Notes: generated from the sequence alone by a model not told the origin. A DNA stretch of 64,000 nt from a virus (IMGVR_UViG_3300010149_000010), one strand, 5' to 3'. Shown: positions 9,165 through 64,000, counted from the stretch's first letter. Program-made: numbers and translations.

Positions 9165-12100
9165 TTAATCTCTCATCATTTTATTAATATAGGCATTACC
9201 TATCGGCCTTCTATTGTCGTTGACAGTCAGTGACGCCTGCCCTCCAGCCGATACAAAGTGCTTGCCCATAGTTTGAGCTGCAGAAAGGCTTGGAGCCTCT
9301 CCGTACATCTTAATTGAACGATTCAATGATACAGTACTCACTCCGCTATTGATAGGTCTTTCATAAAAATTATCAATCCCATTTATCTTACCTGGGCTTA
9401 CGTTTCCGTGCTCTCTACTAAAACTTTGTTGCAAAGCTCTATTGCTTAAACCTTGCCCCGCTTTTAAAGCTTCTTTAGAGATAGAATCGGAAAATTTACC
9501 TCCAGGTTCAAGCGAGCTGCTTGGCGAATTTGCTCCCACAGCATACGAAGCCAAAAGCGAACCTGCAATTACTCCAGCCAAACCCTTGCTCCTGCTAACG
9601 GTTTCGCTAAAAGCACTTCTAGCAGAATCTACTTTAGAAAAAATCGATTCTATTTCATCAAGCTCGCCAGTAATCACTCCACCTTCCATTGAAAAACCCT
9701 TGTTCATTAGTTGGAACAATTGCTGGCTGTTAAACCTAGAAGAACCTTCTAATTTTCTTCCAAGTGCCTTGTTAGATGTAAAATCGTTAAATCCATATTT
9801 TTTTACATTTCTAGCCATAACATCAAAAGAGTCAAATATTTCTTGGACATTTAAATTTACGTCTCCTAGAGCTTCTCTAAACTTTTTCGTTGCATTACCT
9901 TCTCCTAAGTTATGGAACTCAATTGACTTTGCATCTATTTTTAAGTTGCCTTCAGCATTTTCCAACAAAGTTCCTTTGAATATCTTGTCCTGGAAAAAGC
10001 TTTTTAGAGCATCGCCCTTACCCGTATTAAAAGATGTTTTTAAAGCACTTAGGTATTCCCTAGAAATGTTAGCAGCAATCGGAAGCTTCTTGCCTTTAAT
10101 TCCTAAAACTTCTTGAGCCACTGATATTAAAGCTGCTCCACTTTGAATTTTTTTAAATTGAGCTGCAAAATCTCCACTAGTATCATCTGCAGCAGACTGT
10201 GCAAGTCCCAGCATTCCTGCTTTAACTTGCACATCTAGACCACCAATTCCCTTTACTATTTGTTCTTTCTGGTACTCGTCTACAATGGACTGAGCAACTG
10301 TCATTTGTGAGGCTCCCATGCGCTTCCCTAGCTTCTCTACACCTTCCCCAAGCAGGCTCATGTTAGTTAGAAACTCTGCACCATAAGTGTACATTTTTTT
10401 TGCGTCGATCCCTTGGTTTTTCATTTTATTTTTTAAAGTCTTGTCTACATCAAAAAATACCTGATAAGGATCCGCGTCAAAGTCTCCAATGCCAAACCTT
10501 GCAAAATCCATGCGCCCAGAAAAGGCAGTCCTTTTACCTGTATTTACATCTTCTATTTGCATGCTCATGTCTATTTGAGGAAACCTTACAGTCCCTCCTC
10601 CATGCTCGCCTTTCTCTAAGTGCTTGTTAAGCATATCTTTATATATACCACCATAAGCACTAACTTGCTCTTCGTTTAGTTTTCCGCTTTCTTTCAACAA
10701 TCTTAGTTCAGCCAAATCGGCACCTGTTTTAACTTCTCTTCCCAAAACATCGTCTAGGATTTTTAAAGGCCTGCTTATACCAGGCGCTCTTGGCTGAGTT
10801 TTGTTTCCTTGAAAATCTGTATCTAAACCGCTTACTTCAGGAGCGTTGTTCATTATTTTTTCATCTATATCTTTTATAGTTATATCACCTTCATTTTCTA
10901 TTGATTCTTTTTGAGCATTTTCTATTAATTGTTTTTGAGCTTTGATTTCGTCTTCTTCTTGATTTAATCTTTCTATTTCTTCGAAAAGCGCTTTTCTGCG
11001 TTTTTGTTTACCCCTAAAAGGGTTTTTTTCCATTTCGTTAAGATCGCGCGTTGCTCTTTGTGAAATTTCTCTTTGTGAATAGAAATTTGACGCTCTATCT
11101 TTCACCTCTGACATTTTTACTTCTTCTCCTCTAGCTTCTCTTCTGATTACATCGTAGGCGTCTATCTTTGTAGCTTGAGGCGCAAGAGTGTAATTGCTGT
11201 TTTCATTAAGGACTTTTCTTACCCTTCCTCTGTTTCGAGAACTTATCCTCTCTAAGAACGGTTCGAGACTTTCTTCTGTAACCATGCCTTTTTTTCGTGC
11301 CGCTATAATTTCTTCAGAAACTGCTGGCCCCACTCCTTTTAGCTGCATCAATTCCTCTTTTGTTGCTAAGTTTAAATTCACAACACTCGCTCCACCACTT
11401 CTTACTTCTTTTATCCTCTGCGATATTTGCTCCCTATTCATATTGATTTTGCTCCGACCCTTGTTGTCAGGTTGAGCTAGTTCTTCTAAAGGGTTCAATT
11501 TACTCCCCGTTTGATTTCCATACTCATCAAGTAAGGGTACGTTTTTTCCAGAAAACTTTCTTGCTAAAAACTCGTTTTCAAAGCCTTCCAAGCTTCTCAA
11601 GTGAGTTTTATTGTCAGCATTAAAACCAAAAAAAGGTCCCATTTCGTTTATGAATCCAATAGCCTCTTTTTTATTTTCGAAATGCCTAAAAGAAGATGTC
11701 AACCTACCTTCATCTACACTCCTTCCATATGCTCCAACGTCTTCTATAGTTTCTGTGAACTCTCTTTCTAAACTACGTCTTATGTTTCCTTCAGAGACAT
11801 CACCGCCTCCAAGAACAGCCCTTCCGTAAACGTCTTTATTTTTATCAGCAGCGGTAATTTGTTCGTTAATTTTATGTATTTTATTATCAATAATTTTTGC
11901 TTCTTCATTAAGACCTTTAAGTTCCTCTGCCTTTTTGCTATATTCTGTAGTTTTTGTTGAACCAGCTTTATTAAACTTCTTAATTTGTTCAATTATCGGC
12001 TCGGCCTTTTTTTTTATTTTTGAAAACTGATCTTGCAAAAGAGCTACTTTACTATGACGTTTAGCTTGTGCTGCACCTACGTCTTCAGCAAGAAGGTTCA

Positions 12101-15100
12101 AATTACTTTCTTGAGGTAGGTTTCCTGAAAATACACCATGCCGCCTCTCTATAAACCCTCCAGGTTCTTCTAAAATCTTTGAAGCATCTCGCCTTTTGTT
12201 TAAAAGGGACTCCCTTTCAGCAACAAACTTTTCGTAACCTTCTTCACCTTTTATACTGGCTCTTTCTTGTTTGATTTCTTGCCTTTTGGCATAAACTTCT
12301 TGCCCCCTAGTATAAACAGCATCTCTTTCATCAAGTTTTTCTAAACCAGTAACCCCTTTTAATATTTCCGAAACTTTATCTTGGTTTAATGATTTTCTAA
12401 TCTTTTTAAGATGCTCTACATAATCCGGTGTAAACTCTTCTCCTTTTTCTACATTTCTTAAAAACTGTAGTGGTTTTAGCTCTTTTTCAAAATCGTATTG
12501 ATAAATACCCATGCTTGCAAAAATGTGTGAAAAACCTATGAGAGGATTTCTTTGTATCGTTCCAGAAATTCCTTCTTTTTTGCTTCGATGCATGCCAGTA
12601 AAAAAGGCTTCCAAAGTCTCTTCCATTATTTTGTTTGTTTCTTTTTTGGTAGAGACTTTACCTTGAGAAGCTAAATGTTTATTTATTGCTGATTCGTAGG
12701 TACCCATTCCATCTAGGAAAGCCTGTTGATCCATAAATGCAACATAGCCCATTTCTTTGTTTACCACTTCAGACAAAGAGTCTACAATTTGCTTTTGAAC
12801 ATTCAGATCATCGCTAAAGATTGTAGCTCCAACGCCTTTTTTTCCTAAAGTGAACCCACCTCCCATATAAGAGCCTGATCCTAAGATTTTACCACTTAGT
12901 GTACTCCTGATCGCTGTACCCGTTATTTTGCTTAATCTTTTTCTAACTTCAGTAAAGCCTGAAATTGATTTTTCGATTTCATCTTCATCAGTTCCAGCAT
13001 CCTTCAACGAAGATAAAGATGATAGCAAGTCTGTAATATTTCTTCCGTATTCAGCTTCTACTTTTATGACTTCATCACTCGACCTGATCTCATGGCCTAA
13101 AAACCCTTGAAAGGTATCTTCTCCTGGGAGAAATATTTCTTTTTTGCCTCCAGTAAATTCGTACAGCCTATCCAGCCCCTCTTTAGAGAGGCCCATTTTT
13201 TCTAAATCAAGTATGTTCCCTCCTTTCCTGGCAGACAGTTTTTCAACGACTTCTTTCTCTTTGCCTTGCCCAAGGTCTAAAAGTTCAGTTACCTCTTCTT
13301 CGGTTAGTTTACCAACATCGCTTAAACCTGATATCTGCTCTTTTATATTTGTTGCATCAAGCTTTCCAAGAGATTCTTGTGTCAGCTTCATTCCCATCAA
13401 GCCTCCAGCGCGACTTTCGAATCCTTCCATTCTGGTTATCATTGAAGAAACGTATCCCGTCGCTTCTTTTGAATCCATCCCCCAAAAGGATCTTAAAGAA
13501 GAATAAAGATAGTTCGCAAACCTTGGTTCAGCCTTAGCTACGCTTCTGCCCAGGTCTGTATGTGGAGTACCAACAGTTCCAAACGCAGCACCGATTACCA
13601 CACCTCTTTTTGCTGTCTCTTCGATTTTACTTAAATAGGGATCAACATCAACTACACCCGCGTCTTTTAAACCCGCAGCTATTTTTCTTTCAAAATATTC
13701 TAAGTTTAAACCAAACTTTTTATTGCTTGCTTGGTTTCTAGCATAAGACATTACCATTCCAAAATGATCAGCACTTATTCCTTCATCACCAGCCCTTTTT
13801 GCAATTGTTTGAAAGAACTTCCCTAAAGTTGAAGCGCTTTTTTGCTTTGCAGACACTTGGTCTACATTTGTTAGCGTGCTTTTAAAATCACCCAATTGGT
13901 TGTCATTTATTTCGGTAAGCAATTCATCTGCATTGTCTAAAGACCCCATACTAGTATTTAATGCTTTGTCCATTGCTGCTTCATCCAACCCGAGCATCTT
14001 CATACCTCCGTGTATCTGCGTACGCAGATACCCAGCAGACTTTCCCAATTGAGCTGTTGTGGTAAGCAAGGTGTTCTCTATCCTTCCCCCAAAACCGTCT
14101 TTATTGAAAAACACCTCTCCAATGTCACGAACACCCAACTCTTCCAGTTTCTTCAACATAGAAGATTCATTAATTGTAAGCGTTGTGTCTTTGGCTAAAG
14201 AAGAGAATAGTTTGCTATAATCAACGTCTTGCAACACTTGGCCTTTAAGATGGTAGCGGTCCCTTCCTGTTTCCATGCTTTTTTCAGAAAGCCCAAGCGT
14301 AAATCTTTTCATACCTTTGTGACGTTTGATGTGCACAATTCTGTCGTCTTGTTTTCCTAAAACAGCACGCCCTTCAGAATCTCCAAATTGTTTGAAAAAA
14401 TCATCAATATCGTAATCGTCACCATCAACGAGTGAACCTATAGTTAAAAACTTTCTGTTATTGTCTTTTGAAGCATTTAAAACTTCCGTCAATAACTTGC
14501 TCTGGTTAATACCTTCTTTGTTTATGGTTTTTGTATAACCTTTTTTAACCTGAATGGTGCCCCCCATATAACTCATCCCTTCACCAAGGCCTAATTGAGC
14601 AGCAGGGTTTTTTATTTTTTTTGCTCCGTGTTGTGCTTCTTCAAGTTTTTCAAAAATCATAATAGCGCCAAAGTTTACGCCTCTGATATTTTTAGATACT
14701 TCCTTATCACTGGTGATTCCAATCAATTCATTGCTTGCCCCAGATATTTTAATGTCTCCCTTTTTTCCAAAAGTAGCGTCTCTTTCAACACCTGCAAACC
14801 CTGCTGCTAATTCGGGTCTTCCGTAAACTTGACCAGCACGCGCTGTTTGAGGCACTAAACTGCGGTCCAGTCGCCCATACCTTTTCATCGCATTGAAGGC
14901 CGTTTTTGTTTTTGTTCCAGAATCATTCTCCAGTCGCTCAATATGACCTACTATCATTTCTCTTTTTAAATCAAATGGATCCTTAAATCTAGAAGTCAAA
15001 GTTTGCGAACCTGAAGTACCTCCATAAATTTCTGACTCATATTGAAGTATTTTTTTCGTTACTTGCTCCCTGTCTTTTTGTGCAAATTTTTCCAGTCCAG

Positions 15101-16352
15101 CAATTCTATGTATTGATGATTGAAAAGCTCGAGAATCTATAAGTGTAGACATCAAGTCTTTGTCGATTAAATTTATTTCTTTTCCACCATTAATTGTTCT
15201 GCTTGAATTCAATCCTTCAATCATTGTTCTTGGGGTCTCTATTGACATCGACCTAATATAGTCATTGTACTCATTTATATTTGTCACGCTAAAATTTTGA
15301 AAAGACTGTTTGTTTTCTTTTATCAATCCAAATAAATGATCTTCTAAGCTCATTGTAGCGTCTTTTAGCGCAGCTGCTGCCCCAGTCCCCTTTGGGGTTG
15401 CTAACTGATTCAAATCTAAACTAGGGAAAATTTTTGCAGCGTCTATTACACCCCCACTAGTAGTGTACCGTGTAGACATATTCTCCGTCCCTCTTATTAT
15501 TGTCATTCCAGATCTTGGGTCTTTAGCCAGGTCTAAAGCTACGTTTTGAAACCTCCCACTGCTATGCTCTACTCTCGCATAAGTAGACTTACCTTCACCT
15601 GGTCCATACTCTTCTAAAGATACTAATTGTATATTCTTTCCTGAAGCCATGGATTTAAGTTCCCCATATTTCTTCGTCGCTTTTCTACTCAGATCACTTG
15701 TCGATGCTGACTTCCACTCTACAGTGGAGGTTCCTTCTGTTGTGAAATCTTTGAAGGTGGTATTGAATTGGCCTTTTGTTTTCATCATTGAAGAGTGTCT
15801 TTTTTTGAATTCTTGCAACTTTGGACCGCTAGTACTTACACTACTTTTATAAAAATCAATAGCAGTCCGCATATCAACCTGTTCGATGTTTCCTGTTTCA
15901 ACACCTTGGTACAGTTTTTCTAACGATGCTTTTAGTGATCCCGAATCATCAATCATGCTTTCGCTAGCAGTATCAAAAAGTGCTGACAAAAAAGCCCTTG
16001 CTTCATTTGCGGAAGATGTTTCATTAAACATTCTTTCTAGGTTCTCACTACTTAAAATCTCCTCTTTAAAAGTTTTAAGTGCTACTTTCCTGCTTTCGTT
16101 TACAACACTCTTTAACCTTTCAGCATCTTTTCTAATTATGCTTCCTGCCCGACCTAACTCATTTTGCGAAGCAGAAGAGTTCTTTAAAGCCCCTAAGCTC
16201 TTCTTTACACCTGATGTTAAATTTACATTCTCGTTTAACAGGTAGGCTGTCCCAGCCACAGCAGCGGCTCCTATTACTGTGCGTCCAGTGTTTTTTATAT
16301 TCGACACTTCTTTATCTTTTTGCTGCTCATTTAATAGATTTATTAAAGACAT
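9165..16352 (-). CDS. 2395-aa tape-measure-locus protein, candidate virion (tail-delivered) two-barrel RNA polymerase with ComEA-like HhH insert
   Basis: GIGDFDADPY (10470-10484, D1957/D1959/D1961); QRNP (12543-12551); upstream GLGEGMSYM and KLFSSLAK; downstream KGIGGLD and AQEVLGIKGK; HhH VNLNLATKEELMQLKGVGPAVSEEIIAAR (about 11290-11382); lies between the tape measure and hub genes. Confidence 0.65.
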   Translation of the reverse strand: MSLINLLNEQQKDKEVSNIKNTGRTVIGAAAVAGTAYLLNENVNLTSGVKKSLGALKNSSASQNELGRAGSIIRKDAERLKSVVNESRKVALKTFKEEILSSENLERMFNETSSANEARAFLSALFDTASESMIDDSGSLKASLEKLYQGVETGNIEQVDMRTAIDFYKSSVSTSGPKLQEFKKRHSSMMKTKGQFNTTFKDFTTEGTSTVEWKSASTSDLSRKATKKYGELKSMASGKNIQLVSLEEYGPGEGKSTYARVEHSSGRFQNVALDLAKDPRSGMTIIRGTENMSTRYTTSGGVIDAAKIFPSLDLNQLATPKGTGAAAALKDATMSLEDHLFGLIKENKQSFQNFSVTNINEYNDYIRSMSIETPRTMIEGLNSSRTINGGKEINLIDKDLMSTLIDSRAFQSSIHRIAGLEKFAQKDREQVTKKILQYESEIYGGTSGSQTLTSRFKDPFDLKREMIVGHIERLENDSGTKTKTAFNAMKRYGRLDRSLVPQTARAGQVYGRPELAAGFAGVERDATFGKKGDIKISGASNELIGITSDKEVSKNIRGVNFGAIMIFEKLEEAQHGAKKIKNPAAQLGLGEGMSYMGGTIQVKKGYTKTINKEGINQSKLLTEVLNASKDNNRKFLTIGSLVDGDDYDIDDFFKQFGDSEGRAVLGKQDDRIVHIKRHKGMKRFTLGLSEKSMETGRDRYHLKGQVLQDVDYSKLFSSLAKDTTLTINESSMLKKLEELGVRDIGEVFFNKDGFGGRIENTLLTTTAQLGKSAGYLRTQIHGGMKMLGLDEAAMDKALNTSMGSLDNADELLTEINDNQLGDFKSTLTNVDQVSAKQKSASTLGKFFQTIAKRAGDEGISADHFGMVMSYARNQASNKKFGLNLEYFERKIAAGLKDAGVVDVDPYLSKIEETAKRGVVIGAAFGTVGTPHTDLGRSVAKAEPRFANYLYSSLRSFWGMDSKEATGYVSSMITRMEGFESRAGGLMGMKLTQESLGKLDATNIKEQISGLSDVGKLTEEEVTELLDLGQGKEKEVVEKLSARKGGNILDLEKMGLSKEGLDRLYEFTGGKKEIFLPGEDTFQGFLGHEIRSSDEVIKVEAEYGRNITDLLSSLSSLKDAGTDEDEIEKSISGFTEVRKRLSKITGTAIRSTLSGKILGSGSYMGGGFTLGKKGVGATIFSDDLNVQKQIVDSLSEVVNKEMGYVAFMDQQAFLDGMGTYESAINKHLASQGKVSTKKETNKIMEETLEAFFTGMHRSKKEGISGTIQRNPLIGFSHIFASMGIYQYDFEKELKPLQFLRNVEKGEEFTPDYVEHLKKIRKSLNQDKVSEILKGVTGLEKLDERDAVYTRGQEVYAKRQEIKQERASIKGEEGYEKFVAERESLLNKRRDASKILEEPGGFIERRHGVFSGNLPQESNLNLLAEDVGAAQAKRHSKVALLQDQFSKIKKKAEPIIEQIKKFNKAGSTKTTEYSKKAEELKGLNEEAKIIDNKIHKINEQITAADKNKDVYGRAVLGGGDVSEGNIRRSLEREFTETIEDVGAYGRSVDEGRLTSSFRHFENKKEAIGFINEMGPFFGFNADNKTHLRSLEGFENEFLARKFSGKNVPLLDEYGNQTGSKLNPLEELAQPDNKGRSKINMNREQISQRIKEVRSGGASVVNLNLATKEELMQLKGVGPAVSEEIIAARKKGMVTEESLEPFLERISSRNRGRVRKVLNENSNYTLAPQATKIDAYDVIRREARGEEVKMSEVKDRASNFYSQREISQRATRDLNEMEKNPFRGKQKRRKALFEEIERLNQEEDEIKAQKQLIENAQKESIENEGDITIKDIDEKIMNNAPEVSGLDTDFQGNKTQPRAPGISRPLKILDDVLGREVKTGADLAELRLLKESGKLNEEQVSAYGGIYKDMLNKHLEKGEHGGGTVRFPQIDMSMQIEDVNTGKRTAFSGRMDFARFGIGDFDADPYQVFFDVDKTLKNKMKNQGIDAKKMYTYGAEFLTNMSLLGEGVEKLGKRMGASQMTVAQSIVDEYQKEQIVKGIGGLDVQVKAGMLGLAQSAADDTSGDFAAQFKKIQSGAALISVAQEVLGIKGKKLPIAANISREYLSALKTSFNTGKGDALKSFFQDKIFKGTLLENAEGNLKIDAKSIEFHNLGEGNATKKFREALGDVNLNVQEIFDSFDVMARNVKKYGFNDFTSNKALGRKLEGSSRFNSQQLFQLMNKGFSMEGGVITGELDEIESIFSKVDSARSAFSETVSRSKGLAGVIAGSLLASYAVGANSPSSSLEPGGKFSDSISKEALKAGQGLSNRALQQSFSREHGNVSPGKINGIDNFYERPINSGVSTVSLNRSIKMYGEAPSLSAAQTMGKHFVSAGGQASLTVNDNRRPIGNAYINKMMRD

Positions 16353-16353
16353 T

Positions 16354-19300
16354 TTAACCTCTTATCGCTAAACTTAACATTGACAGGATCTCAGTGCTCC
16401 TATCGTCGTTGTAATGTATTTCCGCTCTACTATTTTCATAAGGAGCGTGAGAAGTGTTTATTAAGGATTTACTAAAATCTATTCCCGTAGAATTCTTCAT
16501 TCCTCTTATAAGCCTGTTTCTTGCAGAGCTTCTTGATGGGCCTGGGCTCTCGTACATGAACATGTCAGAACCTTCCAAGTATGGCCTTCTCGAGGCTCTT
16601 CTAACTTGGCTATTCCAGACGTCATAATCGTGTGTCTCTTGACTGCTATTGTCTATGTATTTTACTTTAACATCTTCGATATCGACATCTTTGTGCCATC
16701 CGATCCAATCAGGCCCAGGTAGAGGTTTATTTATAAAGTACTTTTCAACCTCTTGCAATTGCTGACTCATATAGCCAGGATCTATGTTTGCTTTAGCACC
16801 TGCACCCATTAATGTCAATTTTTCACCGCTATCAACTCTGCCCCATACAGCTTTATAAAGATGCACTTGGTCTTCAGGTACAAGCTCTAGTATTTTTTCT
16901 CGATCAGCTTCTCTTGCATTTGCAAAAGCGTCAAAAAATCTTTTTTCTGCATTCGGAAGGGATAAGTACATGCTTAAAGCATCTCCATTAGGATTCACTC
17001 CCGTCCTAGTTTGAGCTGCCATCTTCATGTATCTTTGACGGTCCTTGCCATTCTCTGCACCTTGTGCAAGCTGCATAAACTTTAAAAATTGTAATTTATC
17101 AAAATGGCTGTCTAATTCTTCTCTTTTAGTTACATGTAATGGTTTTCCGCCCCACCCCATTAGGTTAGCTGCACTATACAAAGCTGGTCTGAACCAGTCC
17201 CTTACGTGCTTGTCCCAAAAAGCGTTTGTCGTACCGTAAACTCTTTCCTGCTCGTAAGCTTCTATTGCGGACCTTGTTTTACCCAAAAGTTTTTGCGTTG
17301 GTCTAAACCCGCCTGGAATTAAATATTCCGCAGGCGCACTCACTTTTCTAATTATGCTTTCTGCACCTTGATATAAACTTTTGGTGATATCTGATACTAC
17401 AGGAATTTTAATAGCATTTTTCGCATACTCAAAGTCCCTAGTAGGTGCGAGCTTTTTTCTATGTGCTTCAGAAGCGTTTTCTAAAATTCTATTTTCTAAA
17501 TCAGTTGTAAGCCCAGCGACTCTTCTTTCCATTAGTTGATTTCTTAACCGAATAGTCTCTCTCGATTTAGGCGACAAATCAGAGAGTATCTTGTACTTAT
17601 GTATGTCCGGATAGTCTTCTGGATCTAGACCTTCTACCTCTGGGTTTAAAGCTTCATAAGCTTTTCCAGGCATTCTAGAAAACCCATTTGGAATCGATCT
17701 GTATGGGTCTCCCCTCCTGTATCTTGCAGGCATCCATGAAGGCATTGTGTTGGCAATTGGGTTGTACTTTTCAATTGTAGATCTTGGTCGAGGAAGAATT
17801 CTTCTTATTGGCTCTGAAGTAAAACCTAGCCCACCCAAATCCATATCCCAATAATCTAGCACTCCAGAATCCATGTCTGAAGAAGAGGCCATTTGAAAAT
17901 CTCTTGTACCTATTGTTTCCCTACCGGTTACCAGTTTTTGCAAATAGTTTTTTGTATAACCAGTAAGACCCTCTATTTCTCTGAACTGATACTGCACTTC
18001 TCCTAAAAGCGAAGACGTAGAGTAGGGGCTTTTTGGAACTCCTGGCCCCATTTGGCCTAAAGCTTTACTAGATCCAAACTCTTGCAAGTAGGTGTGCTCG
18101 ACTTGCCCTTTGTCGTTGATTTGCATCAACTCTTCTTCATGCATTAGCCTTGGGGGTTTTATTAACCGACCAATTGTATTTGAAAGTATGCTCCCAATAA
18201 CGGGCACATCTTCAAAAGCAGAGCCACTTATTGGGTAAGGCCTATCATAGTAATTTTTCTCTTCCAAATGGTAAGTAAAATTCTTCAACATAAAACGGCT
18301 TAAAGGAGAGTATTCTTCTGTTTCATCTCCCCAAACAGCTTTCTCTTTTGCTTGCGTCATTAAAGATACATAAGCATGCGGCCTAAAATAACTAGTTTCA
18401 TTCCCTCCCAAAGGCGTCCCGCCACCTTCCCACCATCTTCCTTTTTTAATTTCTACAAGCTTTTTACCAGAATAAATTTCTTTTAGTTCATCTGGGTTTT
18501 CCATTGTACCAAAAAGGCTTCCCGTTAAAAGCTGATGTGTTGCTGCAACCCCTAAAAATAAAGCTCCAAATCTTCTTAAAATAGGTGAAGCATTTAAACT
18601 TTTAGCAAACTCATCGTAAGTCTTAGTTACTTCTTCACCGTTAACCATTCTTGTTACGTCCCCTTTCATCGGGGCGCCCAAGAATGAATGAAATATTTCT
18701 GCTCCAAGTATCTCAGTACGCCTTAGCGTGTTGTCTAAAATGCTTCCGGATTTATATTTACTGTTTATTATTTCAATTCTATCTAATAAAGATCTATTTA
18801 AATCATTGGATTTGTAATTATTATCATAAACGTCTGATCTAATTTTTGCATTTATATTATATTCAAAATCTAAGATTTCTTTCTCTCTTTTCGACACATC
18901 TGTAATGTTTCCGACAATTTGAAATAGATCTTTATTTTTATTAAAAAAAGTACCTAACTTTTTTATTTCTGAATTCTCTAAATCTCCTGCCCCTTTATTT
19001 TTAATTATTTCGTCAATACGCCTCGTATACTCTTTTATTTCCGGCGAGCCCGCATGTAGATTTGAAATCTCCTCACCAAGAGGGTTGTATTTCATAAAAT
19101 TTTCGCTGTAATTGCCACTTCCAGATTTTATTGGTACTAATGCATCATATAACGCTGATGCTTTTACTTGCTTACTTGTTAGAGGTATATCTACTTTTCC
19201 AGTTTTGGCGGAAGCAACTAAACCCACCCTGTCTTTTATAAAATCTGGCACAACTTTTTTTGCAATCTTATCTATTGCACTCAAATTATTGTCTGCGCTC

Positions 19301-22877: not shown

Positions 22878-22880
22878 AAT

Positions 22881-25487: not shown

Positions 25488-25490
25488 AAT

Positions 25491-25545
25491 ATTACCCCAG
25501 GCTAAAAAGTTATTACTATTTATAACATTTATAGCTTGGGGTAAT
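25491..25545 (-). promoter_or_regulatory. Long intergenic stem-loop occluding the RBS of the 562-aa gene; TATAAATA within it
   Basis: ATTACCCCAGGCTA...TAGCTTGGGGTAAT inverted repeat (14 bp, 1 mismatch, plus inner GTTAT/ATAAC) ending 3 nt before the ATG at 25487. Confidence 0.6.
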
Positions 25546-56184: not shown

Positions 56185-56187
56185 TAC

Positions 56188-56556
56188 ATGAATTCTACAG
56201 TAACCCTACCCAAAACCAAAAATTATCAACATGTCAGACACTGGGACTTGGTTGACATTTGGAAAGACTCAGCTTCGCTTCAACCAATAGAAGTTAAGGT
56301 AGATACGCTTTGGAAGGAATATGAAGGGATTTATTGTTGGCTGGAAGTTGGTGACAAAGTTACTCATGCTCATTTTTTGCACCATCTAGACAGGATAATG
56401 AGCGCTGACCTAAGTTACCCTATAATACTCTCTGAAGAAAACTACATTATGGATGGCGTGCATAGGCTTATGAAATGTAAGTACCTAGGTATAACGTCTA
56501 TTCATTGTTTAAAATTTAAAAAAGACCCTGTGTCAAAAGGAAAAATTAATGCTTAA
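56188..56556 (+). CDS. ParB-N/sulfiredoxin-like domain protein (122 aa)
   Basis: ADLSYPIIL...IMDGVHRL...LG signature; RBS GAGGT. Confidence 0.7.
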   Translation: MNSTVTLPKTKNYQHVRHWDLVDIWKDSASLQPIEVKVDTLWKEYEGIYCWLEVGDKVTHAHFLHHLDRIMSADLSYPIILSEENYIMDGVHRLMKCKYLGITSIHCLKFKKDPVSKGKINA

Positions 56557-56758
56557 AAGGCAGAAAATATCTAAACTACCAATACAAGAGATAAACCAAC
56601 ATATCTCAGCATACGAAAGGATGCTTGATTTTTATCAAGATTATTTAAATACTAAAGGTGATTACATTTACGTCAATGAGAGAGTCCAGTATTTAAATGG
56701 TAAATTAGCAGAATGTCTAATTGCGCGAGAAATCCATATAGAAGAAAACACCCAATAG
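56549..56758 (+). CDS. Hypothetical protein (69 aa)
   Basis: Overlaps the upstream gene end; RBS AAGGA. Confidence 0.55.
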   Translation: MLKRQKISKLPIQEINQHISAYERMLDFYQDYLNTKGDYIYVNERVQYLNGKLAECLIAREIHIEENTQ

Positions 56759-56896
56759 GGCCAGCCTTAGTTTAAAATTAAAAAATTTAAATTTGAGCTT
56801 TTTAATATTAGCCGAAATAAAACAGGCACCTTTTCTATAAAAGCAAAAGATTGATTGATGAATCGGGGGAGAGTAGTTGGGTGATGTGTACGAATG

Positions 56897-56954
56897 ATAT
56901 AAATTATATTTAGAAAAGGCCCTATGGTTGGATCGAAATATATAAATTATATTT
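56897..56954. repeat. 15-bp direct repeat ATATAAATTATATTT x2 (near-palindromic)
   Basis: Copies at 56897-56911 and 56940-56954 in the largest non-coding gap. Confidence 0.8.
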
Positions 56955-57097
56955 GGGGGTATTTATATTAATGGTGTTTTTGCACTCTTAGAGTTGCGAG
57001 CCCACCCCCGTTTGAGCATGGGTTAAGCTTCCCCCCTACACATCAGTGATAAATCACACACCTACATCACTGATTTTTGCCCCAGAAGGACATTATT

Positions 57098-57568
57098 ATG
57101 GATACTTGGCAAATCATCGCCATCATCTTCACAACCCTTCACCTTGCTTTCTTTTCACAATACTTTATCTTGGGATGCTCTATCTTAGAGCATATTGAGA
57201 ATAAGAAAATTGAAGCAGGTAACCGAGCATACGCTGCTTGGAAGCTTGGGTTTATCGCCCCTCGCAACCTTGCTTATATAAATGCAATCGCCTCTCAGCC
57301 TTTCTACCTCTTTGAGGTGGCAAAGTGGGAGAACCTTCAGGTCTATCATCATGTTGATGGAACCTGGTATGACATTGATTCTGGTAACTTAAGGGGTTAC
57401 GTCAAGATCAATAGGGAAGGCCAGATTGGTTTCAGTAAAAATCGGCATCTCGTAGAGAGTAAGTGTCGTATCATGCTCAGAGTTAGTGAGGGTGGGCTTT
57501 GCTATATCTTGGATCCTTCACTCAGAAAGAGTGAGAGAAACAGGTGGCATGAGCGCTGGTCCATCTAA
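57098..57568 (+). CDS. Hypothetical early membrane protein (156 aa)
   Basis: RBS GAAGGA before ATG 57098; N-terminal TM WQIIAIIFTTLHLAFFSQYFILG. Confidence 0.65.
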   Translation: MDTWQIIAIIFTTLHLAFFSQYFILGCSILEHIENKKIEAGNRAYAAWKLGFIAPRNLAYINAIASQPFYLFEVAKWENLQVYHHVDGTWYDIDSGNLRGYVKINREGQIGFSKNRHLVESKCRIMLRVSEGGLCYILDPSLRKSERNRWHERWSI

Positions 57569-57599
57569 ATTTTATCCTAGAAAAGTGCTATGTTTTCGG

Positions 57600-57622
57600 A
57601 AGCCCCCTTCGGGGCTTTTTTT
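57600..57622 (+). terminator. Intrinsic terminator
   Basis: AAGCCCC-CTTC-GGGGCTT followed by a T run. Confidence 0.85.
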
Positions 57623-57660
57623 AATTTACCCTACTTCAATGGATGCTTAAGCACATCCAT
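57617..57660 (+). promoter_or_regulatory. Repeated AATTT-N10-AATGG-hairpin element, copy 1 (candidate phage promoter)
   Basis: TTTTTTAATTT ACCCTACTTC A ATGGATG-CTTAAGCA-CATCCAT. Confidence 0.55.
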
Positions 57661-57732
57661 CTCTCATGTTGAGGGTAAAGCGCACCAGTGCAATGCTTCT
57701 ACGCAATTCTTCGTTGTCGGAAGGACATCATC

Positions 57733-59022
57733 ATGCGTAACTTATCTATCCTTGCCTTTATTGGCTTCCTATTCTTATTCACTGGCTGCGGCGTTGTGCG
57801 CAATGTGGCCTCAACCCTCAACCACGAGATCTGCGAAAAGAGCTACAACAAGTTTGTATGCCCAACCGTATCTGAACCAGCACATACACCCCTCTGCTAT
57901 GGGGTAAGTGTACGCACCACTGCCGGAGTCGATAACTTTGCCCATACCGATCAGGGGCCATTTTGCAAGAAACTCCAAAATGAGGCTACGCGTAAAGCCT
58001 TCCAATCAAAGCCAGGGACAACCTGCGCCATCAAAGGCAAGGGTAAATTTCAGAAGGTTGTATGTGCCGGCTTCCATCACGCTGGCGGCATCTTACTCAT
58101 CCTCTTGACGCTTCTTTGGGGGCGTGGTTTACGCGATCTTATGGTCGCTAGTGTAGAGAATGAAGATACCCGTCGCCCCTTTGATGGAATGTGGGAGGGG
58201 TGCAGAGTGATGATTATCGCCTGCATTGGGGCTGTGGTTTTACTAGCGTTAACCACAAACGCTTATAGCCAGCCTTGTGTCAACAAGGCTTATACAATAA
58301 GTCAACCGTCTGACATCTTGGAGTGCGAGATGACCCTCTCCACTCCAGAGAGCAACATGAGGTATACTTTAACGGCCCTAGATTTGGCTCAAGATAAAGT
58401 CTGCAATATACACCATCCGAACATGGGCATTGTAGCTTGCTACGACCTCTATGACGAGGCCCGCGCCCTCTTTAAGGCGAGGGCAGCCTTGTTGATGCTG
58501 AAAGAAGCGACACGAATCGTTGATATCAATGAAAGCGTCACGACCCCCACGCCATGTGGGGCAAATAAGCACTTGTGTGCTTCAGTGGGATGGGATAAGG
58601 CAAGTGGAATCGGCCTATTCTTTTCCTTCATCATTTCTTTACTCCTCTCTCGTCGCAAGACGAGAGAGGAGTGGTTCGGTTTTGAAACACTCCTGTACAG
58701 GGAGACGAGGAACGCCGTTTGGGCAATCGAGGACGAGCTATACAAAGCTCGTTGGATCGAGCGTGTGATTGAGGCTGCAATCACTCTCGCAGCCTTCTCT
58801 TTTGGGGGGCTCGTATTAGGGATTACATCCACCTTCTTGGCCCAGAAGAGATACGGGTGGGCGAGCATCTTCTGTGTGTTCGTATCAGTTCTCCTCTGGG
58901 GCTCTGCCCTGGAATGGATCCTTTTTGTACTCAAAGCATTAACGTGCTTCCTCTCAAACACTGAGGAGGGGTTCCGTTTCGTTAGGTGGGCGCTCCATCA
59001 GCGATGGAAACGTCAACTGTAA
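57733..59022 (+). CDS. Cys-rich multi-pass membrane lipoprotein (429 aa)
   Basis: RBS GAAGGA before ATG 57733; MRNLSILAFIGFLFLFTG-C lipobox; two Cys-rich regions each followed by TM segments. Confidence 0.65.
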   Translation: MRNLSILAFIGFLFLFTGCGVVRNVASTLNHEICEKSYNKFVCPTVSEPAHTPLCYGVSVRTTAGVDNFAHTDQGPFCKKLQNEATRKAFQSKPGTTCAIKGKGKFQKVVCAGFHHAGGILLILLTLLWGRGLRDLMVASVENEDTRRPFDGMWEGCRVMIIACIGAVVLLALTTNAYSQPCVNKAYTISQPSDILECEMTLSTPESNMRYTLTALDLAQDKVCNIHHPNMGIVACYDLYDEARALFKARAALLMLKEATRIVDINESVTTPTPCGANKHLCASVGWDKASGIGLFFSFIISLLLSRRKTREEWFGFETLLYRETRNAVWAIEDELYKARWIERVIEAAITLAAFSFGGLVLGITSTFLAQKRYGWASIFCVFVSVLLWGSALEWILFVLKALTCFLSNTEEGFRFVRWALHQRWKRQL

Positions 59023-59056
59023 GTAAAACAATCAAAAAAGTATTTATGTTTTTTGG

Positions 59057-59080
59057 AGCTCCCTTTTGGGAGCTTTTTTT
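59057..59080 (+). terminator. Intrinsic terminator
   Basis: AGCTCCC-TTTT-GGGAGCT followed by T6. Confidence 0.85.
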
Positions 59081-59115
59081 AATTTACTCCTTTTAATGGG
59101 GGTTTAACATCCTCC
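59075..59115 (+). promoter_or_regulatory. Repeated AATTT-N9-AATGG-hairpin element, copy 2
   Basis: TTTTTTAATTT ACTCCTTTT AAT GGGGG-TTTAACAT-CCTCC. Confidence 0.5.
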
Positions 59116-59175
59116 TTTGTAATTCTGCATAAAAAAAAGTGTAACCTAAATGTAGCCAAATACAGGAGTATTACT

Positions 59176-59814
59176 ATGGCTTATAAAATCTTTAACAACA
59201 CAGGGCGAGCCCTGTGCAGCGAAAGAGAGAATGGTTTTATTGTTCTCTTCTCAGAAAAAAGAGATTTCAAAGACTACCAATTCAACGACCTCGACGGAAA
59301 AGCGATAGTAGAGGCGATCTGGAGTCCAAGCGGTTTTGTTGACGCTCACTATTTCTTCTTCAGCAAAGTCTGGTTTTCTGCAGACAAGGTGAGATCATTC
59401 AACGATCTGTGCATCGTAAAGCGTGATCCAGCGTACCCAGAGCGCTTCATCGAAACACCTGTCAAGGAACTTAAAGAGAGCGTATTCCAGGCAATTCTTT
59501 CATGTTCATTTGACGGTGTTTCTGATGACGAGCTTCAAGACCTTGCTAATCTTCGATCCACATTTGAAGATGATCTTCGTCGCGCAAGAGACGAGGTAGA
59601 GAGATTCGCGCATTCGTGGAGATGCAGGGATGGGAGCGTTCTCCCAGCACACGATCAAAAGGTCATTATCCAGCTCCGTGAAGAAGAAAAGAAGAGGGTC
59701 GACCCATCACTGTTGCTCCATTCCTATCACCACCTTATGATGGAGTTCAGAAGAGAGCTCCATCGCAGAGGACTAATTCTGAGAATGGGGAACATCGTTC
59801 CTTTTCAATATTGA
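59176..59814 (+). CDS. Hypothetical early protein (212 aa)
   Basis: RBS CAGGAG; bounded by terminators on both sides. Confidence 0.7.
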   Translation: MAYKIFNNTGRALCSERENGFIVLFSEKRDFKDYQFNDLDGKAIVEAIWSPSGFVDAHYFFFSKVWFSADKVRSFNDLCIVKRDPAYPERFIETPVKELKESVFQAILSCSFDGVSDDELQDLANLRSTFEDDLRRARDEVERFAHSWRCRDGSVLPAHDQKVIIQLREEEKKRVDPSLLLHSYHHLMMEFRRELHRRGLILRMGNIVPFQY

Positions 59815-59853
59815 TCGCTAAAAGAGCCAACTGAAGATTAAGAAACACCTAAA

Positions 59854-59891
59854 GCCCTGGAGTGCACCACCGCACTTCGGGGCAGTTTTTT
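59854..59891 (+). terminator. Intrinsic terminator
   Basis: GCCCTGGAGTGC-ACCACC-GCACTTCGGGGC (12-bp stem, 2 G-U) then AG and T6. Confidence 0.8.
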
Positions 59892-59931
59892 AATTTGTTT
59901 CCTTTAATGGAGAGATTATAGCAACTCTCCA
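59886..59931 (+). promoter_or_regulatory. Repeated AATTT-N9-AATGG-hairpin element, copy 3
   Basis: TTTTTTAATTT GTTTCCTTT AA TGGAGAG-ATTATAGCAA-CTCTCCA. Confidence 0.55.
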
Positions 59932-60002
59932 GCCTTCAGAATAGAAGGTGCCATTAGGCTTCGTGGTATACACACAACCCCCTACAGAAAGGGACTGAGA
60001 CA

Positions 60003-63000
60003 ATGCGTAAAGCAATTTTCTCACTTTTCCTTGGCCTGCTGTGGGCAGCTAGCTGTTATTCAGTCTATGTTGCTCCTCTAGCATTGCCTGCGTCCGCCGT
60101 GGATGCAGCGCCAATTGTTCATCCTTCAGCAGAGGTCGCAAAACCTCTTGCTACCAACCGCACTGACAACGCAACTGCTGAGATTGACCATCTTCGCAGT
60201 ACTACTATTAACAGTGGAAGCTCTACCCCTAGTCAAGGTACCTTCCCCATTAATAACCCTAACGCATTACGTCCTCGTCGTAGAGGTATTATGCGTCGCA
60301 GAAAGCTGAAGTCACGAAAGGGCAACCGCCTTGTTAGTGATGCCTTTATCAAATTTGTCTTTGGTTACCACCGTGTAACTTACATGAGTGGCAATTGGCT
60401 GTGTTACGAAGAGACGCCTTACACAGAGGCAGACTTCAAAGTGAGTAAACCAGCTAAAGCTCGTAAGAAAGCGAAGAAATCCTGGCGTCAGCTAAAGGGT
60501 GAGGCAACACGTCTTTACCAGAAGGCTGCAAAGCTTCGTAAGCGCAATCCAGAATATCCGCCTGCAATAGCCTGTGCGGTGTTTGCCAAAGCACAAAAAC
60601 TTCATCATAAAGCCAATGATATGAAGAAGGCATTAAAAGAGGCTCAACCGACAGCACGTCAACAGCGTTCATTCCGACGCTCAGTGTTGAGAGCGGAAGC
60701 CAAAACTTGCGAGCAGTTTATCAAAGCTGAGTTAGTGAGCAATGTGGACCAAGCTAAAGAGCTGATTCAAAAGGTCCTCAGTGGTGACACTAATGGAGCT
60801 GCATTGAGACTATTACAAAAATCTCAATTAGGGCGCATTTACGTAAAATATGGTATCCTCCAGGCGCCGATGAAAGAGGAAGAAGTCGAGAGACCTACGA
60901 ACCCAGTAGTCAGACACATCAAAGTAGCAGAAACCCCTGCAAGGGTATGGACCCCATTGATGCGTGCAGCGATTATAGTTATTGCACCACTCATGCTAGG
61001 TATGGATGCGGATGTAGGTACCGTCGCAGAAGTCACTTATGCTAGTGCTTCTGGTGGTATTTTAATGATGACCCTGAAGAACGTCTTGAATACTCCAGCC
61101 CGTAAGCGTGAAGCAGCGCAAGACGGGTACAATCGTTACGCAGAGCAGTCGATCAAAGCTGCAAAGGGTAGTGAATGGGATGTTTTCTCCCTCATGCGAT
61201 TCAGTCGCAGTGGTAAAGGTGCGCCGATCACCAACGGCAAAGCCCACGATACTGACAAGCAGAAGGGTCGTGCTGTCCGTATTATTCAAGATAGCATCGG
61301 CGGGGCGTACTGCCCAAAGGTAAAGTCATTCGCCAGGATGCTTGGAATTGAACTCGGCGTGGACAACTGTCTCCGTTATGAAGTTGACGACCAAATGGAT
61401 GAGGTACTAAAAGCTGACGTCGTCGAGATCTTAATGGCAGCCAGCTTTGTTATTCTTTGTGACGGCTTTGCTGTTCACAAGAGCATTGCTCGCCCCTTCA
61501 TTGAGTACGGGGAGACTATGTTCGGCAATGCTGTAGCTGTGCGCTCTTACTTCCGCAGTCTAATCACCACACCAGAGCTCTACACGGTCAACCAGGACTT
61601 ACCTATCTTCTTGGGTGACCTCGATGAGCTTATGGGATGGGCGGAGAACGATGGTGGCGCTGTGCATACCAATCGCCTGAGCGTGAGCATGCAGTTCCGA
61701 GGGATCGCGAAAGTGCTTGAGGCGAAGTACCGCATCTTGTCCAAGGGCATCACAACTTCTGCTAAGGTTATTGCTGACATCACTGATGACGTCGACAAGC
61801 CTGTCTTCGTCAACTATGAAGGCGATGAGGAAGGCCACATCAAGGGTGAGGTTCGCCTAAGCAAAAAGGTTGACGAGTGCATCCGTGTTGCAGTAGAGGA
61901 AGAATTCAACGCTCTGCATGCTGTTAACACGGCGACTAAAGAGCAGCTTTGCTTAGTTGCAGGAATTGGCCCTAAGACCGCTGAAAAGATCGTTGAAGCT
62001 CGTAATGCTGCAGGTGGGGCATTCGCTGACATGGATGCGTTCTACAACGTGTCAAGGCGCCTTGATCCCAGCAACCCGGACGCGCTTCGCGTCTTGCGTT
62101 GGTCTTTTGGCCACAAGGGCCGTGTTTACTCAGTGGGCCTATTCCTTGACAAGGGTTGTCTCAAGGGAGAAGACAAGAATGCTTGGGACTGGAACAAGCT
62201 CAACTTCTTCGGCGTCAACGGCCAAAATGTCGACTTCTGGTCTATCGCTATCGACCAGATTGGCGGCAAGATCAGCTTGGGCTGGCAGGTAGTCCAGTTA
62301 TTAGACGCTGACTTCATCGGCGGTTTGTTCAAGAACACTGATGGTAGTCTTGGAATCGCGGCCCAAAAGTTAGCGCGCCAGATCGACAATGCAATCGAGC
62401 AGGAACACCCTCTTTGTAAGCATCTCCTTGATGCAATTGAAGACAAGGGCGGTGACATTGAAAACTTGATGTCAGCCGTAAAAGCTATTTCCGTGCTTCA
62501 GGGCCTCGGGAAGACCGCCTCTAAGCGCATCAGCAATGGTCTCGGTGCGAAGGCAGGATCTTACTATGTTCAGATGATCGACATGGGTGGCGACTGGGTA
62601 ATTATCAAAACACCCAAGGCCAAGGATGGCAAGGGTTACAAGCGATGGGCTACTTGCTTCTTCGGTCGTACACCGAACCAGGGGCACGAGACCGTCCGCG
62701 CACCTATGGCGCTATCACCAACTTATGTCGGTGGATTCTTGAGGGATTATCTTGATAATGGCTTTGACGCTGTAGAGAAGCACGGCAAACAAGCCGTAAA
62801 ATTCGTTATGGGTCTCAATGATGCTTGTGGTCATGATACCGATGTAGTACGTCTTCGCTGCCGTGCGATCTTGACGATGCTCCCAGCTGTAATTGATGGA
62901 ATTGCTTTAGTCGACTCAACTCTACAACAAAAGGTATGCGGCGACAATGATGGCGACCGTAACATGATCAGCTTCGACAAGATGCTCGTTGCAATCGCCA

Positions 63001-64000
63001 AGCATATCACCCGTAAGCATCCTACTACATTCCCTGCGCGCGAGCAGTCAAAGAAGTTCGTTCTCAATACCTTTGATGATGTGGTCTTGGAGAAGGGCGG
63101 CTGGCTTCGTAGCTTTAACAAGTACATGAAAACAGGTGACTCTTCGGAGTTGCTTCTCATTTCCAAGTTCCTTTCTGCCCCCGGTGGGACTCCAGGGCAA
63201 GGGAACGTGGGTGGTGTGACGCAATGTGCTGCTGCACCAATGCTTTTCTGTGACTGGCACTGGGTCAAGAAGGATGGCAAAGATGTCTACGAGCCAGTCA
63301 ATCCAGCCGCTCGCAAGTTGGTCAATTATCTTTACTTGTGCCAGCAGATCGCCATTGACCGCCAAAAGTATTACTATTTGGCGCCTTCGCTGCTGCATTG
63401 GTTCTTTGCTGACCTTGAGGTTGGTGACGCAGTCATCAAAGAGTTGAAGGCAGGCGGCCATGCGGACACTAATTGGCTTCACAGTCACTACCCAATTCAG
63501 GGTGCTGCTGATATGTCGTTCGAAGAATACCAAGCCGCTTGGAAAAATGGTACATTGCCTGTGATCTCAGAGATCATCCCAGGCATGGGTAAAGGCGCTA
63601 TGGGCGGTCAATCTGTCGCTCCGATGATGTACTCCAACGGCCCGCTTTACGTGTGGACCGCGTGGCAGGTTAACGGTATTAACCTCGGCTTTGATTACTT
63701 CGATAAAGACAGGATGGTTGAGCTTTCTGGGTTCTTTGACGAAGAGATTGCTCAGACTGCTGACTGGCAGGGTATCATTGACCACCTCAATCTCAGTGTC
63801 TCAGCTGAACAGCTCGAGGAAAGCTGGGTGTGGCCTGGCTACATCACGGGTTGGGTCAACACCAACTTCCGTGAGTCTCAAGATCTCTCTCCAGAGACCT
63901 TCCAGTCTGCTCGCATCCATGCCAACAATGTGTGGCTCGAGAAAATGGAGCAGGCAGGTATCGATGCTGACCCAGCCGTAACTCTCGTTGAGAGTGGGTT
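60003..64000 (+). CDS. Single-chain two-barrel RNA polymerase of the YonO / cellular-RdRP-like type (>1332 aa, runs off window end) with hydrophobic N-terminus and HhH insert
   Basis: Hand translation from ATG 60003 gives an uninterrupted frame with ordered motifs NDGG (61647), QFRG (about 61692), SKG (61740), KGCLK, SLGWQVVQLL, GRTP (62664-62675), GDNDGD (D981-D985, 62943-62957), GNVGGVT, QQIAIDRQK (63342-63368). Confidence 0.85.
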   Translation, partial: MRKAIFSLFLGLLWAASCYSVYVAPLALPASAVDAAPIVHPSAEVAKPLATNRTDNATAEIDHLRSTTINSGSSTPSQGTFPINNPNALRPRRRGIMRRRKLKSRKGNRLVSDAFIKFVFGYHRVTYMSGNWLCYEETPYTEADFKVSKPAKARKKAKKSWRQLKGEATRLYQKAAKLRKRNPEYPPAIACAVFAKAQKLHHKANDMKKALKEAQPTARQQRSFRRSVLRAEAKTCEQFIKAELVSNVDQAKELIQKVLSGDTNGAALRLLQKSQLGRIYVKYGILQAPMKEEEVERPTNPVVRHIKVAETPARVWTPLMRAAIIVIAPLMLGMDADVGTVAEVTYASASGGILMMTLKNVLNTPARKREAAQDGYNRYAEQSIKAAKGSEWDVFSLMRFSRSGKGAPITNGKAHDTDKQKGRAVRIIQDSIGGAYCPKVKSFARMLGIELGVDNCLRYEVDDQMDEVLKADVVEILMAASFVILCDGFAVHKSIARPFIEYGETMFGNAVAVRSYFRSLITTPELYTVNQDLPIFLGDLDELMGWAENDGGAVHTNRLSVSMQFRGIAKVLEAKYRILSKGITTSAKVIADITDDVDKPVFVNYEGDEEGHIKGEVRLSKKVDECIRVAVEEEFNALHAVNTATKEQLCLVAGIGPKTAEKIVEARNAAGGAFADMDAFYNVSRRLDPSNPDALRVLRWSFGHKGRVYSVGLFLDKGCLKGEDKNAWDWNKLNFFGVNGQNVDFWSIAIDQIGGKISLGWQVVQLLDADFIGGLFKNTDGSLGIAAQKLARQIDNAIEQEHPLCKHLLDAIEDKGGDIENLMSAVKAISVLQGLGKTASKRISNGLGAKAGSYYVQMIDMGGDWVIIKTPKAKDGKGYKRWATCFFGRTPNQGHETVRAPMALSPTYVGGFLRDYLDNGFDAVEKHGKQAVKFVMGLNDACGHDTDVVRLRCRAILTMLPAVIDGIALVDSTLQQKVCGDNDGDRNMISFDKMLVAIAKHITRKHPTTFPAREQSKKFVLNTFDDVVLEKGGWLRSFNKYMKTGDSSELLLISKFLSAPGGTPGQGNVGGVTQCAAAPMLFCDWHWVKKDGKDVYEPVNPAARKLVNYLYLCQQIAIDRQKYYYLAPSLLHWFFADLEVGDAVIKELKAGGHADTNWLHSHYPIQGAADMSFEEYQAAWKNGTLPVISEIIPGMGKGAMGGQSVAPMMYSNGPLYVWTAWQVNGINLGFDYFDKDRMVELSGFFDEEIAQTADWQGIIDHLNLSVSAEQLEESWVWPGYITGWVNTNFRESQDLSPETFQSARIHANNVWLEKMEQAGIDADPAVTLVESG

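Follow-up and report, generated by a model that had tools for sequence, protein, structure and literature searches.

Two giant proteins of a marine contractile-tailed phage: a single-chain two-barrel RNA polymerase and a candidate virion polymerase in the tape-measure slot

The window analysed here is a stretch of 64,000 nucleotides (nt) of viral DNA (IMGVR_UViG_3300010149_000010) which represents the late operon of a marine contractile-tailed phage (myovirus) of approximately 159 kb. Two giant proteins are encoded in it: a 2174-amino-acid (aa) protein, whose gene starts at position 60003, and a 2395-aa protein, whose gene occupies the tape-measure locus. The predicted fold identifies the 2174-aa protein as a single-chain two-barrel RNA polymerase (RNAP) of the clade comprising QDE-1, YonO, crAss gp66 and P23-45 gp64, and the motifs of the 2395-aa protein make it likely that this protein is an RNAP as well. 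We estimate the probability at about 0.5 that both giants are built around a cellular-type two-barrel active site, that the protein in the tape-measure slot is delivered by the virion and that the two enzymes form a polymerase cascade. The positions of all features are collected in Table 1.

The gene at 60003 encodes 1332 aa inside the window, and its full-length product comprises 2174 aa. An exhaustive profile search (cluster representatives at 50% identity) returned approximately 25 true relatives of 1200-2300 aa, along with many other matches that were due to the helix-hairpin-helix (HhH) motif alone. In the family alignment of 26 sequences, in which the numbering of the modelled slice plus 379 gives the protein numbering, residues Q762, P891, D981, D983, G984, D985, G1065, Q1066, G1070, Q1115, I1118, D1119, Q1121 and K1122 were invariant, and R889 of the RTP motif was kept in at least 90% of the homologues. 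The R-x-P motif and the DNDGD loop are spaced by 92 aa. The AlphaFold2 model of aa 380-1400 reached a predicted local distance difference test score (pLDDT) of 80.4 and a predicted template modelling score (pTM) of 0.80, and in it the strands of R-x-P and DNDGD are separated by a helical insert (slice residues 527-585). Foldseek comparison of this model with the PDB gave 19 matches at E ≤ 0.001, all of them single-chain two-barrel RNAPs, including QDE-1 (E = 8e-7 to 1e-6), plant RDR2 and phi14:2 gp66 (E = 5e-4). The gp64-type enzymes of the P23-45 group were matched at E = 1e-3 to 1.5e-3, and the weaker matches just past E = 0.001 were also single-chain two-barrel RNAPs (QDE-1, RDR2 or gp64-type). 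The BFVD matches were “RdRP” proteins of uncultured phages and P23-45 gp64. No Pfam polymerase model, RdRP (PF05183) included, matched the part of the protein inside the window at E ≤ 1 or the 26 homologues at E ≤ 0.1, and the PHROG models were also blind to this family. The protein is identified as an RNA polymerase because its fold, with two double-psi beta-barrels as in solved members, and its motifs agree, and it is a new deep-branching, HhH-bearing member of the single-chain RNAP clade. An earlier note on this DNA, made from the sequence alone, had ascribed a two-barrel identity to the 60003 protein from its RxP, DNDGD and Q..I..K signatures. All three signatures are present, with DxDGD, the proline of RTP and AIDxQK invariant in the 26 homologues, and the structure prediction together with the Foldseek matches to QDE-1, gp66 and gp64-type enzymes bears out the assignment. 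Overall, every feature that the note described was found at the position given there, and its interpretation is partly supported.

The polymerase carries extensions of approximately 380 aa at the N-terminus and approximately 770 aa at the C-terminus beyond its core. Its N-terminus (aa 1-32, IFSLFLGLLWAASCYSVYV, window positions 60003-60100) is a conserved hydrophobic stretch that resembles a signal peptide, and a second hydrophobic stretch lies at aa 315-341, an arrangement odd for a cytoplasmic enzyme. The higher G+C content of this region raised the question of a host rpoB or rpoC gene on a chimeric contig. This idea was rejected on three grounds: the fold, the presence of homologues on complete phage contigs and the conserved placement of the gene. 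A YonO-like enzyme has been described in Bacillus phage 0305phi8-36 (Iyer et al. 2021, PMC7824862). Its gp99, like the polymerase of the window, is encoded opposite to the strand of the late operon and near the operon start; gp99 has 1218 aa and matches Pfam RdRP (PF05183) at E = 1e-18, whereas the window enzyme has 2174 aa, no Pfam polymerase match and an HhH insert. The crAss-like phage phi14:2 offers a closer parallel in size: gp66 (PDB 6VR4, approximately 2180 aa) is a single-chain two-barrel enzyme sharing the R-x-P-N-Q-G motif with the 2174-aa protein. The size near that of gp66, the fold match to it, the long terminal extras and the conserved hydrophobic N-terminus, which could aid membrane passage, would suit a packaged and injected virion enzyme of the gp66 type, in which case the protein in the tape-measure slot would not be a polymerase. 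We regard this as unlikely. While gp66 is encoded in the podovirus structural block and packaged in the head, the gene of the 2174-aa enzyme is not part of the structural operon; it is read from the other strand, has small genes as neighbours and has a G+C content of 49-51%, compared with 35-40% in the late operon. Moreover, within the stretches of the 0305phi8-36 record that were covered, the positional analogue gp99 bears no virion mass-spectrometry note, while dozens of structural proteins have one.

The second giant gene follows those of the tail chaperones and precedes that of the hub, as tape-measure genes do. It is flanked by the gene of a 1465-aa protein, which gave collinear BLASTP matches to 0305phi8-36 gp145 (E = 2e-20, 1e-17 and 1e-16), and by that of a hub-like giant of more than 3053 aa, which matched the hub protein gp147 of the same phage (E = 2e-10); this order is kept in relatives. 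The 2395-aa protein occupies the tape-measure slot, as the comparison of sequences indicates, because its flanks are homologous to gp145 and gp147 and the locus is syntenic with that of 0305phi8-36, and the locus had been read in the same way before. The gene order common to both phages comprises the sheath, the tube, tube paralogues, two chaperones, a giant, the slot giant and the hub. In the 0305phi8-36 record, gp145 is followed by gp146 (“hypothetical tape measure protein”), by the hub gp147 with its peptidoglycan-degrading domains and then by a gpV-like spike; the same record lists both gp145 and gp146 as proteins detected in virions by mass spectrometry. BLASTP of the 2395-aa protein against gp146 gave no match. 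The last 62 residues of the 2395-aa protein (9165-9350, minus strand) align weakly, end to end, with the C-terminus of gp146 (E = 0.099), the residues common to both being IN.GE...D.R....Y..K...D, and the two slot proteins may share a C-terminal docking tail.

The combined alignment of the 2395-aa family included 25 sequences, down to approximately 22% identity. In these homologues 47 residues, mostly charged, never vary. They include R505, K714, K721, K771, R1268, P1270, H1276, D1957, D1959 and D1961, as well as K2029, E2030, K2034, G2037, E2081, K2086 and K2088 in the C-terminal block. The polymerase-like signatures of this gene that the earlier note had pointed out, R-x-P and DFDAD, are present, with R1268, P1270 and the three aspartates invariant throughout the family, and K714 and K721 may represent the basic pair of a second barrel. 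The family is built from two conserved blocks (aa 1-1300 and 1900-2395), and the middle, which varies from approximately 250 to approximately 1200 aa, matched the coiled coils of SMC and dynactin in the family profile (aa 1300-1900). The candidate motifs flank the coiled coil on both sides. Approximately 690 residues, mostly variable coiled coil with the HhH motif, separate R-x-P from DFDAD, which lies 440 aa from the C-terminus. A compact distant branch of the family, reached by way of an IMG/VR contig and an additional search, has seven members of 1708-1994 aa. In six of these seven, GDFDGD, GDYDGD or GDHDGD is followed by Y-Q, and R-x-P...H lies 122-186 residues upstream, a distance comparable to the 92 aa in the 2174-aa polymerase. 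Because the compact homologues keep this polymerase-like spacing, the gap of 690 residues is read as a lineage-specific insertion; it would lie at the topological place of the helical insert in the model of the 2174-aa polymerase. The RNPLI of the 2395-aa protein resembles RNPVM of P23-45 gp96 (FRNPVMGH) and RSPLI of 0305phi8-36 gp99 (FRSPLIH). HhH inserts had been claimed for both giants, and both were recovered with Pfam HhH_3; the two motifs share 48% identity over 27 aa (E = 4e-4).

The absence of a significant alignment between the 2395-aa protein and any polymerase would be expected if its motifs resembled polymerase motifs by chance, with no shared function. Such a coincidence is highly improbable, as the three aspartates, R-x-P...H and the lysines stay invariant down to approximately 22% identity, and the distant members display a canonical GDFDGD. 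Two other motifs of the protein were also inspected. A second DxDxD (DYDID, aa 646-650, nt 14403-14417, minus strand) is not invariant in the family. RFP at aa 1923-1925 was considered as the R-x-P motif and is less likely than the motif at R1268, because R1923 is not conserved.

Several results weigh against a polymerase in the slot. The sole model of the 2395-aa family to span both R-x-P and DxDxD, which covered aa 840-2031 of a short-linker homologue, was mostly helical and unreliable (pLDDT 47.7, pTM 0.29), and Foldseek found no PDB match for it, just helical-bundle noise; the 2174-aa polymerase, by comparison, folded well from a similarly shallow alignment. Comparison of the two families by hhalign gave a probability of approximately 0.4% or less in every variant, i.e., with whole alignments, with the coiled coil removed, with sub-windows and with the compact homologues. 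In the run with the compact homologues, the best local alignment fell on the two acidic loops (E = 0.17). Nothing was found by hhalign between the 2395-aa family and gp96, and all probabilities against known RNAP members were below 1%. Searches of Pfam, PHROGs, PDB sequences and phage databases with both giants returned the HhH motif only. The loop of the window's subfamily (DFDAD) has an alanine where nearly all polymerases have a glycine; in phi14:2 gp66 the acidic loop, DFDID, also has a non-glycine residue at this place. Finally, the slot by itself does not imply a polymerase, since 0305phi8-36 gp146 has no DxDxD and no significant similarity to the 2395-aa protein. The negative profile comparisons carry little weight, because the 2174-aa polymerase, whose identity is confirmed by its fold, fails in the same comparison: in a control run with hhalign it also missed gp64, gp66, gp96 and gp99. 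Similarity between RNAP families has been reported to be confined to the DxDxD region (PMC10770324). Of the earlier note's reading of the slot protein as an RNAP, the slot and the conserved, correctly ordered residues were confirmed, while for the barrel fold the sole model, at a pLDDT of 47.7, yielded no matches.

Another explanation is that the 2174-aa enzyme is the sole RNAP of the phage. The host polymerase would make it early, from the promoter-like boxes of the three conserved elements described below, and the enzyme would then transcribe middle or late genes in a T7-style take-over, with the 2395-aa protein acting as a tape measure or an ejection protein. The acidic loop and the basic residues of the slot protein would then serve metal binding, another enzyme activity or assembly contacts. 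This is a serious possibility that falls short of being probable. It agrees with the fold evidence, which is confined to the 2174-aa protein, with the 2395-aa-family model, which gave neither a barrel nor a structural match, with the annotation of the 0305phi8-36 slot protein, lacking DxDxD, as a tape measure, with the ruler-like, coiled-coil middle of variable length and with the weak C-terminal alignment to gp146. On the other hand, 47 invariant, mostly charged residues are unexpected for a purely structural ruler, as is a canonical GDFDGD or GDYDGD placed after R-x-P...H at a polymerase-like spacing, and this reading does not account for a DNA-binding HhH motif in a tape measure.

On its plus strand, the window contains exactly three copies of a composite element, with none expected by chance, and the element is real and conserved. 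Each copy opens with a G+C-rich hairpin and a T-run, followed by the box TTTTTAATTT(A/G) and, after approximately 7 bases, by TT(T/C)AATGG and a second short hairpin, which starts at the GG of TTYAATGG (GGATG/CATCC, GGGGG/CCTCC or GGAGAG/CTCTCC). The first hairpins lie 30-40 nt past the preceding stop codons (57568, 59022 and 59814), and the next start codons come 77-93 nt further on. A search of the following 10 kb revealed no additional copy. A complete relative of 161,781 bp with terminal repeats and approximately 50% protein identity (G001) likewise contains exactly three, all on the strand that carries its polymerase gene. One of these aligns closely with copy 3 of the window and, as estimated from match coordinates, lies just upstream of the homologous polymerase start. 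In another relative (G002), the strict pattern gave no copy. RNAalifold analysis of the six copies indicated weak covariation for the second hairpin. The gene between the first two elements (57733-59022, plus strand) contains a perfect 14-bp inverted repeat at 58641-58672; its product has 429 aa, several hydrophobic segments and a signal of the lipoprotein type (LFLFTGC).

The first hairpin is best read as an intrinsic terminator: in a scan of 20 kb, the three first hairpins were among the four terminator-like sites with the longest stems. The AT-rich box and the second hairpin together make up a candidate promoter with a 5' stem-loop. The conserved hairpin element that had been described ahead of early genes, including the second polymerase gene, was found in three conserved copies, with its first hairpin being a terminator-like stem with a T-run. 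Two points count against a role of the elements in a cascade started by a virion polymerase: the first hairpins look like ordinary intrinsic terminators, as would also suit a 2174-aa enzyme that is the sole phage RNAP, and the AT-rich box could equally be a promoter for the host polymerase. The latter reading is opposed by the fact that no sigma-70-type consensus stands out at the three elements, which is unexpected if the host polymerase makes the sole phage RNAP.

The cascade favoured here would begin with the 2395-aa protein as a protein of the virion tail lumen. Its two blocks (aa 1-1300 and aa 1900-2395) would together constitute a diverged polymerase core, in which the catalytic barrel breaks off after the R-x-P...H strand (aa 1268-1276) and resumes before the DFDAD loop (aa 1957-1961). 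The intervening coiled coil of approximately 600 aa, variable in length and bearing the HhH motif, may act as the tail ruler. By analogy with P23-45 and N4, the protein would exit the particle via the tail tube along with the DNA and would transcribe the few genes behind the three elements of AT-rich box plus hairpin, the second polymerase gene among them. The 2174-aa polymerase would then take over later transcription, for which the earlier note proposed the late operon. This sequence of events, from a tail-delivered enzyme through the genes behind the elements to the second RNAP, is inferred from the P23-45 analogy, from the rarity and conservation of the elements and from searches of two complete relatives, in which neither PF00623 (beta-prime domain 2, one such model tried) nor sigma-70 region 2 had any match. 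A search with a T7-type model gave no signal anywhere, and its result is void because the controls gave no signal either. Coliphage N4 has a virion RNAP and three hairpin early promoters ahead of its first genes, including the genes of its second polymerase; the N4 virion enzyme is T7-like, not two-barrel. The window likewise has three hairpin elements before genes that include a second polymerase gene, although its first hairpin is shaped like a terminator and the promoter role is putative. In its fullest form, which we advance tentatively, the proposal describes a widespread lineage of marine (and other) myophages in which the slot protein is an active polymerase whose barrel is split by a coiled-coil ruler of 100-1300 residues with an HhH motif; it would be extruded with the genome and fire three hairpin-flanked pre-early promoters, one of which would drive the second two-barrel polymerase, which looks unrelated to the first, as a strategy of the P23-45 type that arose independently.

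In P23-45, gp96 is a virion RNAP fused to the tape measure and gp64 is the non-virion RNAP (Chaban et al. 2024, PMC10770324; PDB 8H2M/8H2N); structures of gp64-type enzymes are available as PDB 8F72 and 8F5M. Both P23-45 and the phage of the window encode a protein in the tape-measure slot (here a candidate polymerase) and a second enzyme outside the structural operon, and both gp96 and the 2395-aa protein have an R-N-P motif ahead of DxDxD. No sequence or profile similarity was detected between these two proteins. In gp96 (5002 aa), a compact N-terminal polymerase module is followed by the ruler, whereas the candidate motifs of the 2395-aa protein straddle the coiled coil. P23-45 is a siphovirus, while the phage of the window has a contractile tail, so that the pairing differs from that of P23-45 in tail type, in the split architecture and in the HhH inserts of both proteins. 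Literature searches yielded no description of a slot candidate paired with a second two-barrel RNAP in myoviruses.

Table 1. Features of the window (positions in nt from the first letter of the window; aa, amino acids; ORF, open reading frame; E, expectation value)
Feature	Position	Strand	Remarks
2395-aa protein (P0001), candidate virion RNA polymerase, tape-measure slot	9165-16352	-	intact ORF
GDFDAD, aa 1956-1961, candidate Mg-binding loop	10470-10487	-	D1957, D1959, D1961 invariant
QRNPLIGFSH, aa 1267-1276, candidate R-x-P...H strand of catalytic barrel	12525-12554	-	R1268, P1270, H1276 invariant
SKLFSSLAK, K714...K721	14190-14213	-	K714, K721 invariant
Length-variable charged coiled-coil-like stretch, aa 1300-1900	10653-12455	-	not conserved among homologues
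HhH motif of 2395-aa protein, aa 1656-1689	11286-11387	-	Pfam HhH_3, E 6e-7
2174-aa single-chain two-barrel RNA polymerase by predicted fold (P0002/P0003), first 1332 aa	60003-64000	+	ORF open to window end
GRTPNQGHE of 2174-aa protein, aa 888-896	62667-62675 (RTP)	+	
GDNDGD of 2174-aa protein, aa 980-985	62943-62957 (DNDGD)	+	
QQIAIDRQKY of 2174-aa protein, aa 1114-1123		+	
HhH_3 of 2174-aa protein, aa 641-685	61914-62057 (HhH)	+	Pfam, E 4e-9
Element, copy 1	57598-57658	+	upstream of gene 57733-59022; box TTTTTAATTTACCCTACTTCAATGG, second hairpin GGATG...CATCC
Element, copy 2	59055-59115	+	upstream of gene 59176-59814
Element, copy 3	59854-59930	+	box ends 93 nt upstream of polymerase start codon
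Baseplate hub counterpart, ORF >3053 aa, peptidoglycan amidase domain	3-9161	-	Pfam Amidase_2, aa 1171-1283
1465-aa tail-module protein (P0184), gp145 homologue	16354-20751	-	BLASTP to 0305phi8-36 gp145
Four adjacent paralogues (154, 305, 562, 290 aa)	22413-26435	-	all match phrog_9206
Tail sheath	26460-29384	-	PHROG tail sheath, E 8.6e-9
Major head protein	33240-34586	-	PHROG match
Portal	38779-40266	-	PHROG match
Large terminase	47708-49915	-	PHROG match
1361-aa protein, staphylococcal nuclease domain	51020-55105	-	domain aa 1055-1163, E 1.5e-21

The minus strand of the window, from approximately 55.9 kb down to position 1, is a single long late operon. The plus strand from 56.2 kb carries small genes, followed by the ORF that runs past the window end. 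The tail is contractile, as had been supposed, because of the PHROG match to a tail sheath, and the portal, major head protein and large terminase were recognized by PHROG models as well. Downstream of the four paralogues, the late operon encodes two small proteins and then the three giants (1465, 2395 and >3053 aa). The label of phrog_9206 is major head protein, and in 0305phi8-36 the positions of these paralogues are occupied by the tail tube and its paralogues. The hub-like giant (3-9161) corresponds to two genes in relatives, of 1288 and 1904 aa in one (L007) and of 1447 and at least 2188 aa on another contig. The gene of the 1361-aa protein with the nuclease domain lies close to the head of the late operon, where it precedes the terminase gene and is itself preceded by a 254-aa ORF (55098-55862). 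The late operon has a G+C content of 35-40%, which rises to 47-51% beyond 58 kb. This rise (56000-64000 versus 1-56000) covers the polymerase gene along with the small genes of the plus strand and suggests a block with a different origin or different constraints.

Proteins of the window recur on contigs from metagenomes (158-162 kb), a number of them marine (Tara), and the families of both giants are present together in two complete relatives (161,781 and 158,462 bp). The INPHARED collection contained no phage matching the 2395-aa or the 2174-aa protein. When large terminases are compared, the closest cultured phages are Moorella phage MTATph1, Acinetobacter phage ME3 and Bacillus phage 0305phi8-36 (24-28% identity), and sequence comparison identifies the phage of the window as a distant relative of 0305phi8-36.

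Two-barrel RNAPs delivered by the virion have been described in crAss-like podoviruses and in a single lineage of siphoviruses, the P23-45 group, whose virion RNAP is fused to the tape measure. Irrespective of the slot protein, the 2174-aa enzyme adds a deep-branching HhH family to the clade of single-chain RNAPs. If the slot protein is a polymerase, ocean phages with contractile tails would have adopted the same solution as the P23-45 group, with the ruler placed inside the catalytic barrel, and it would become a question how so large an enzyme threads the tail tube and refolds. Many “hypothetical tape measure” giants of metagenomic phages would then be transcription enzymes.

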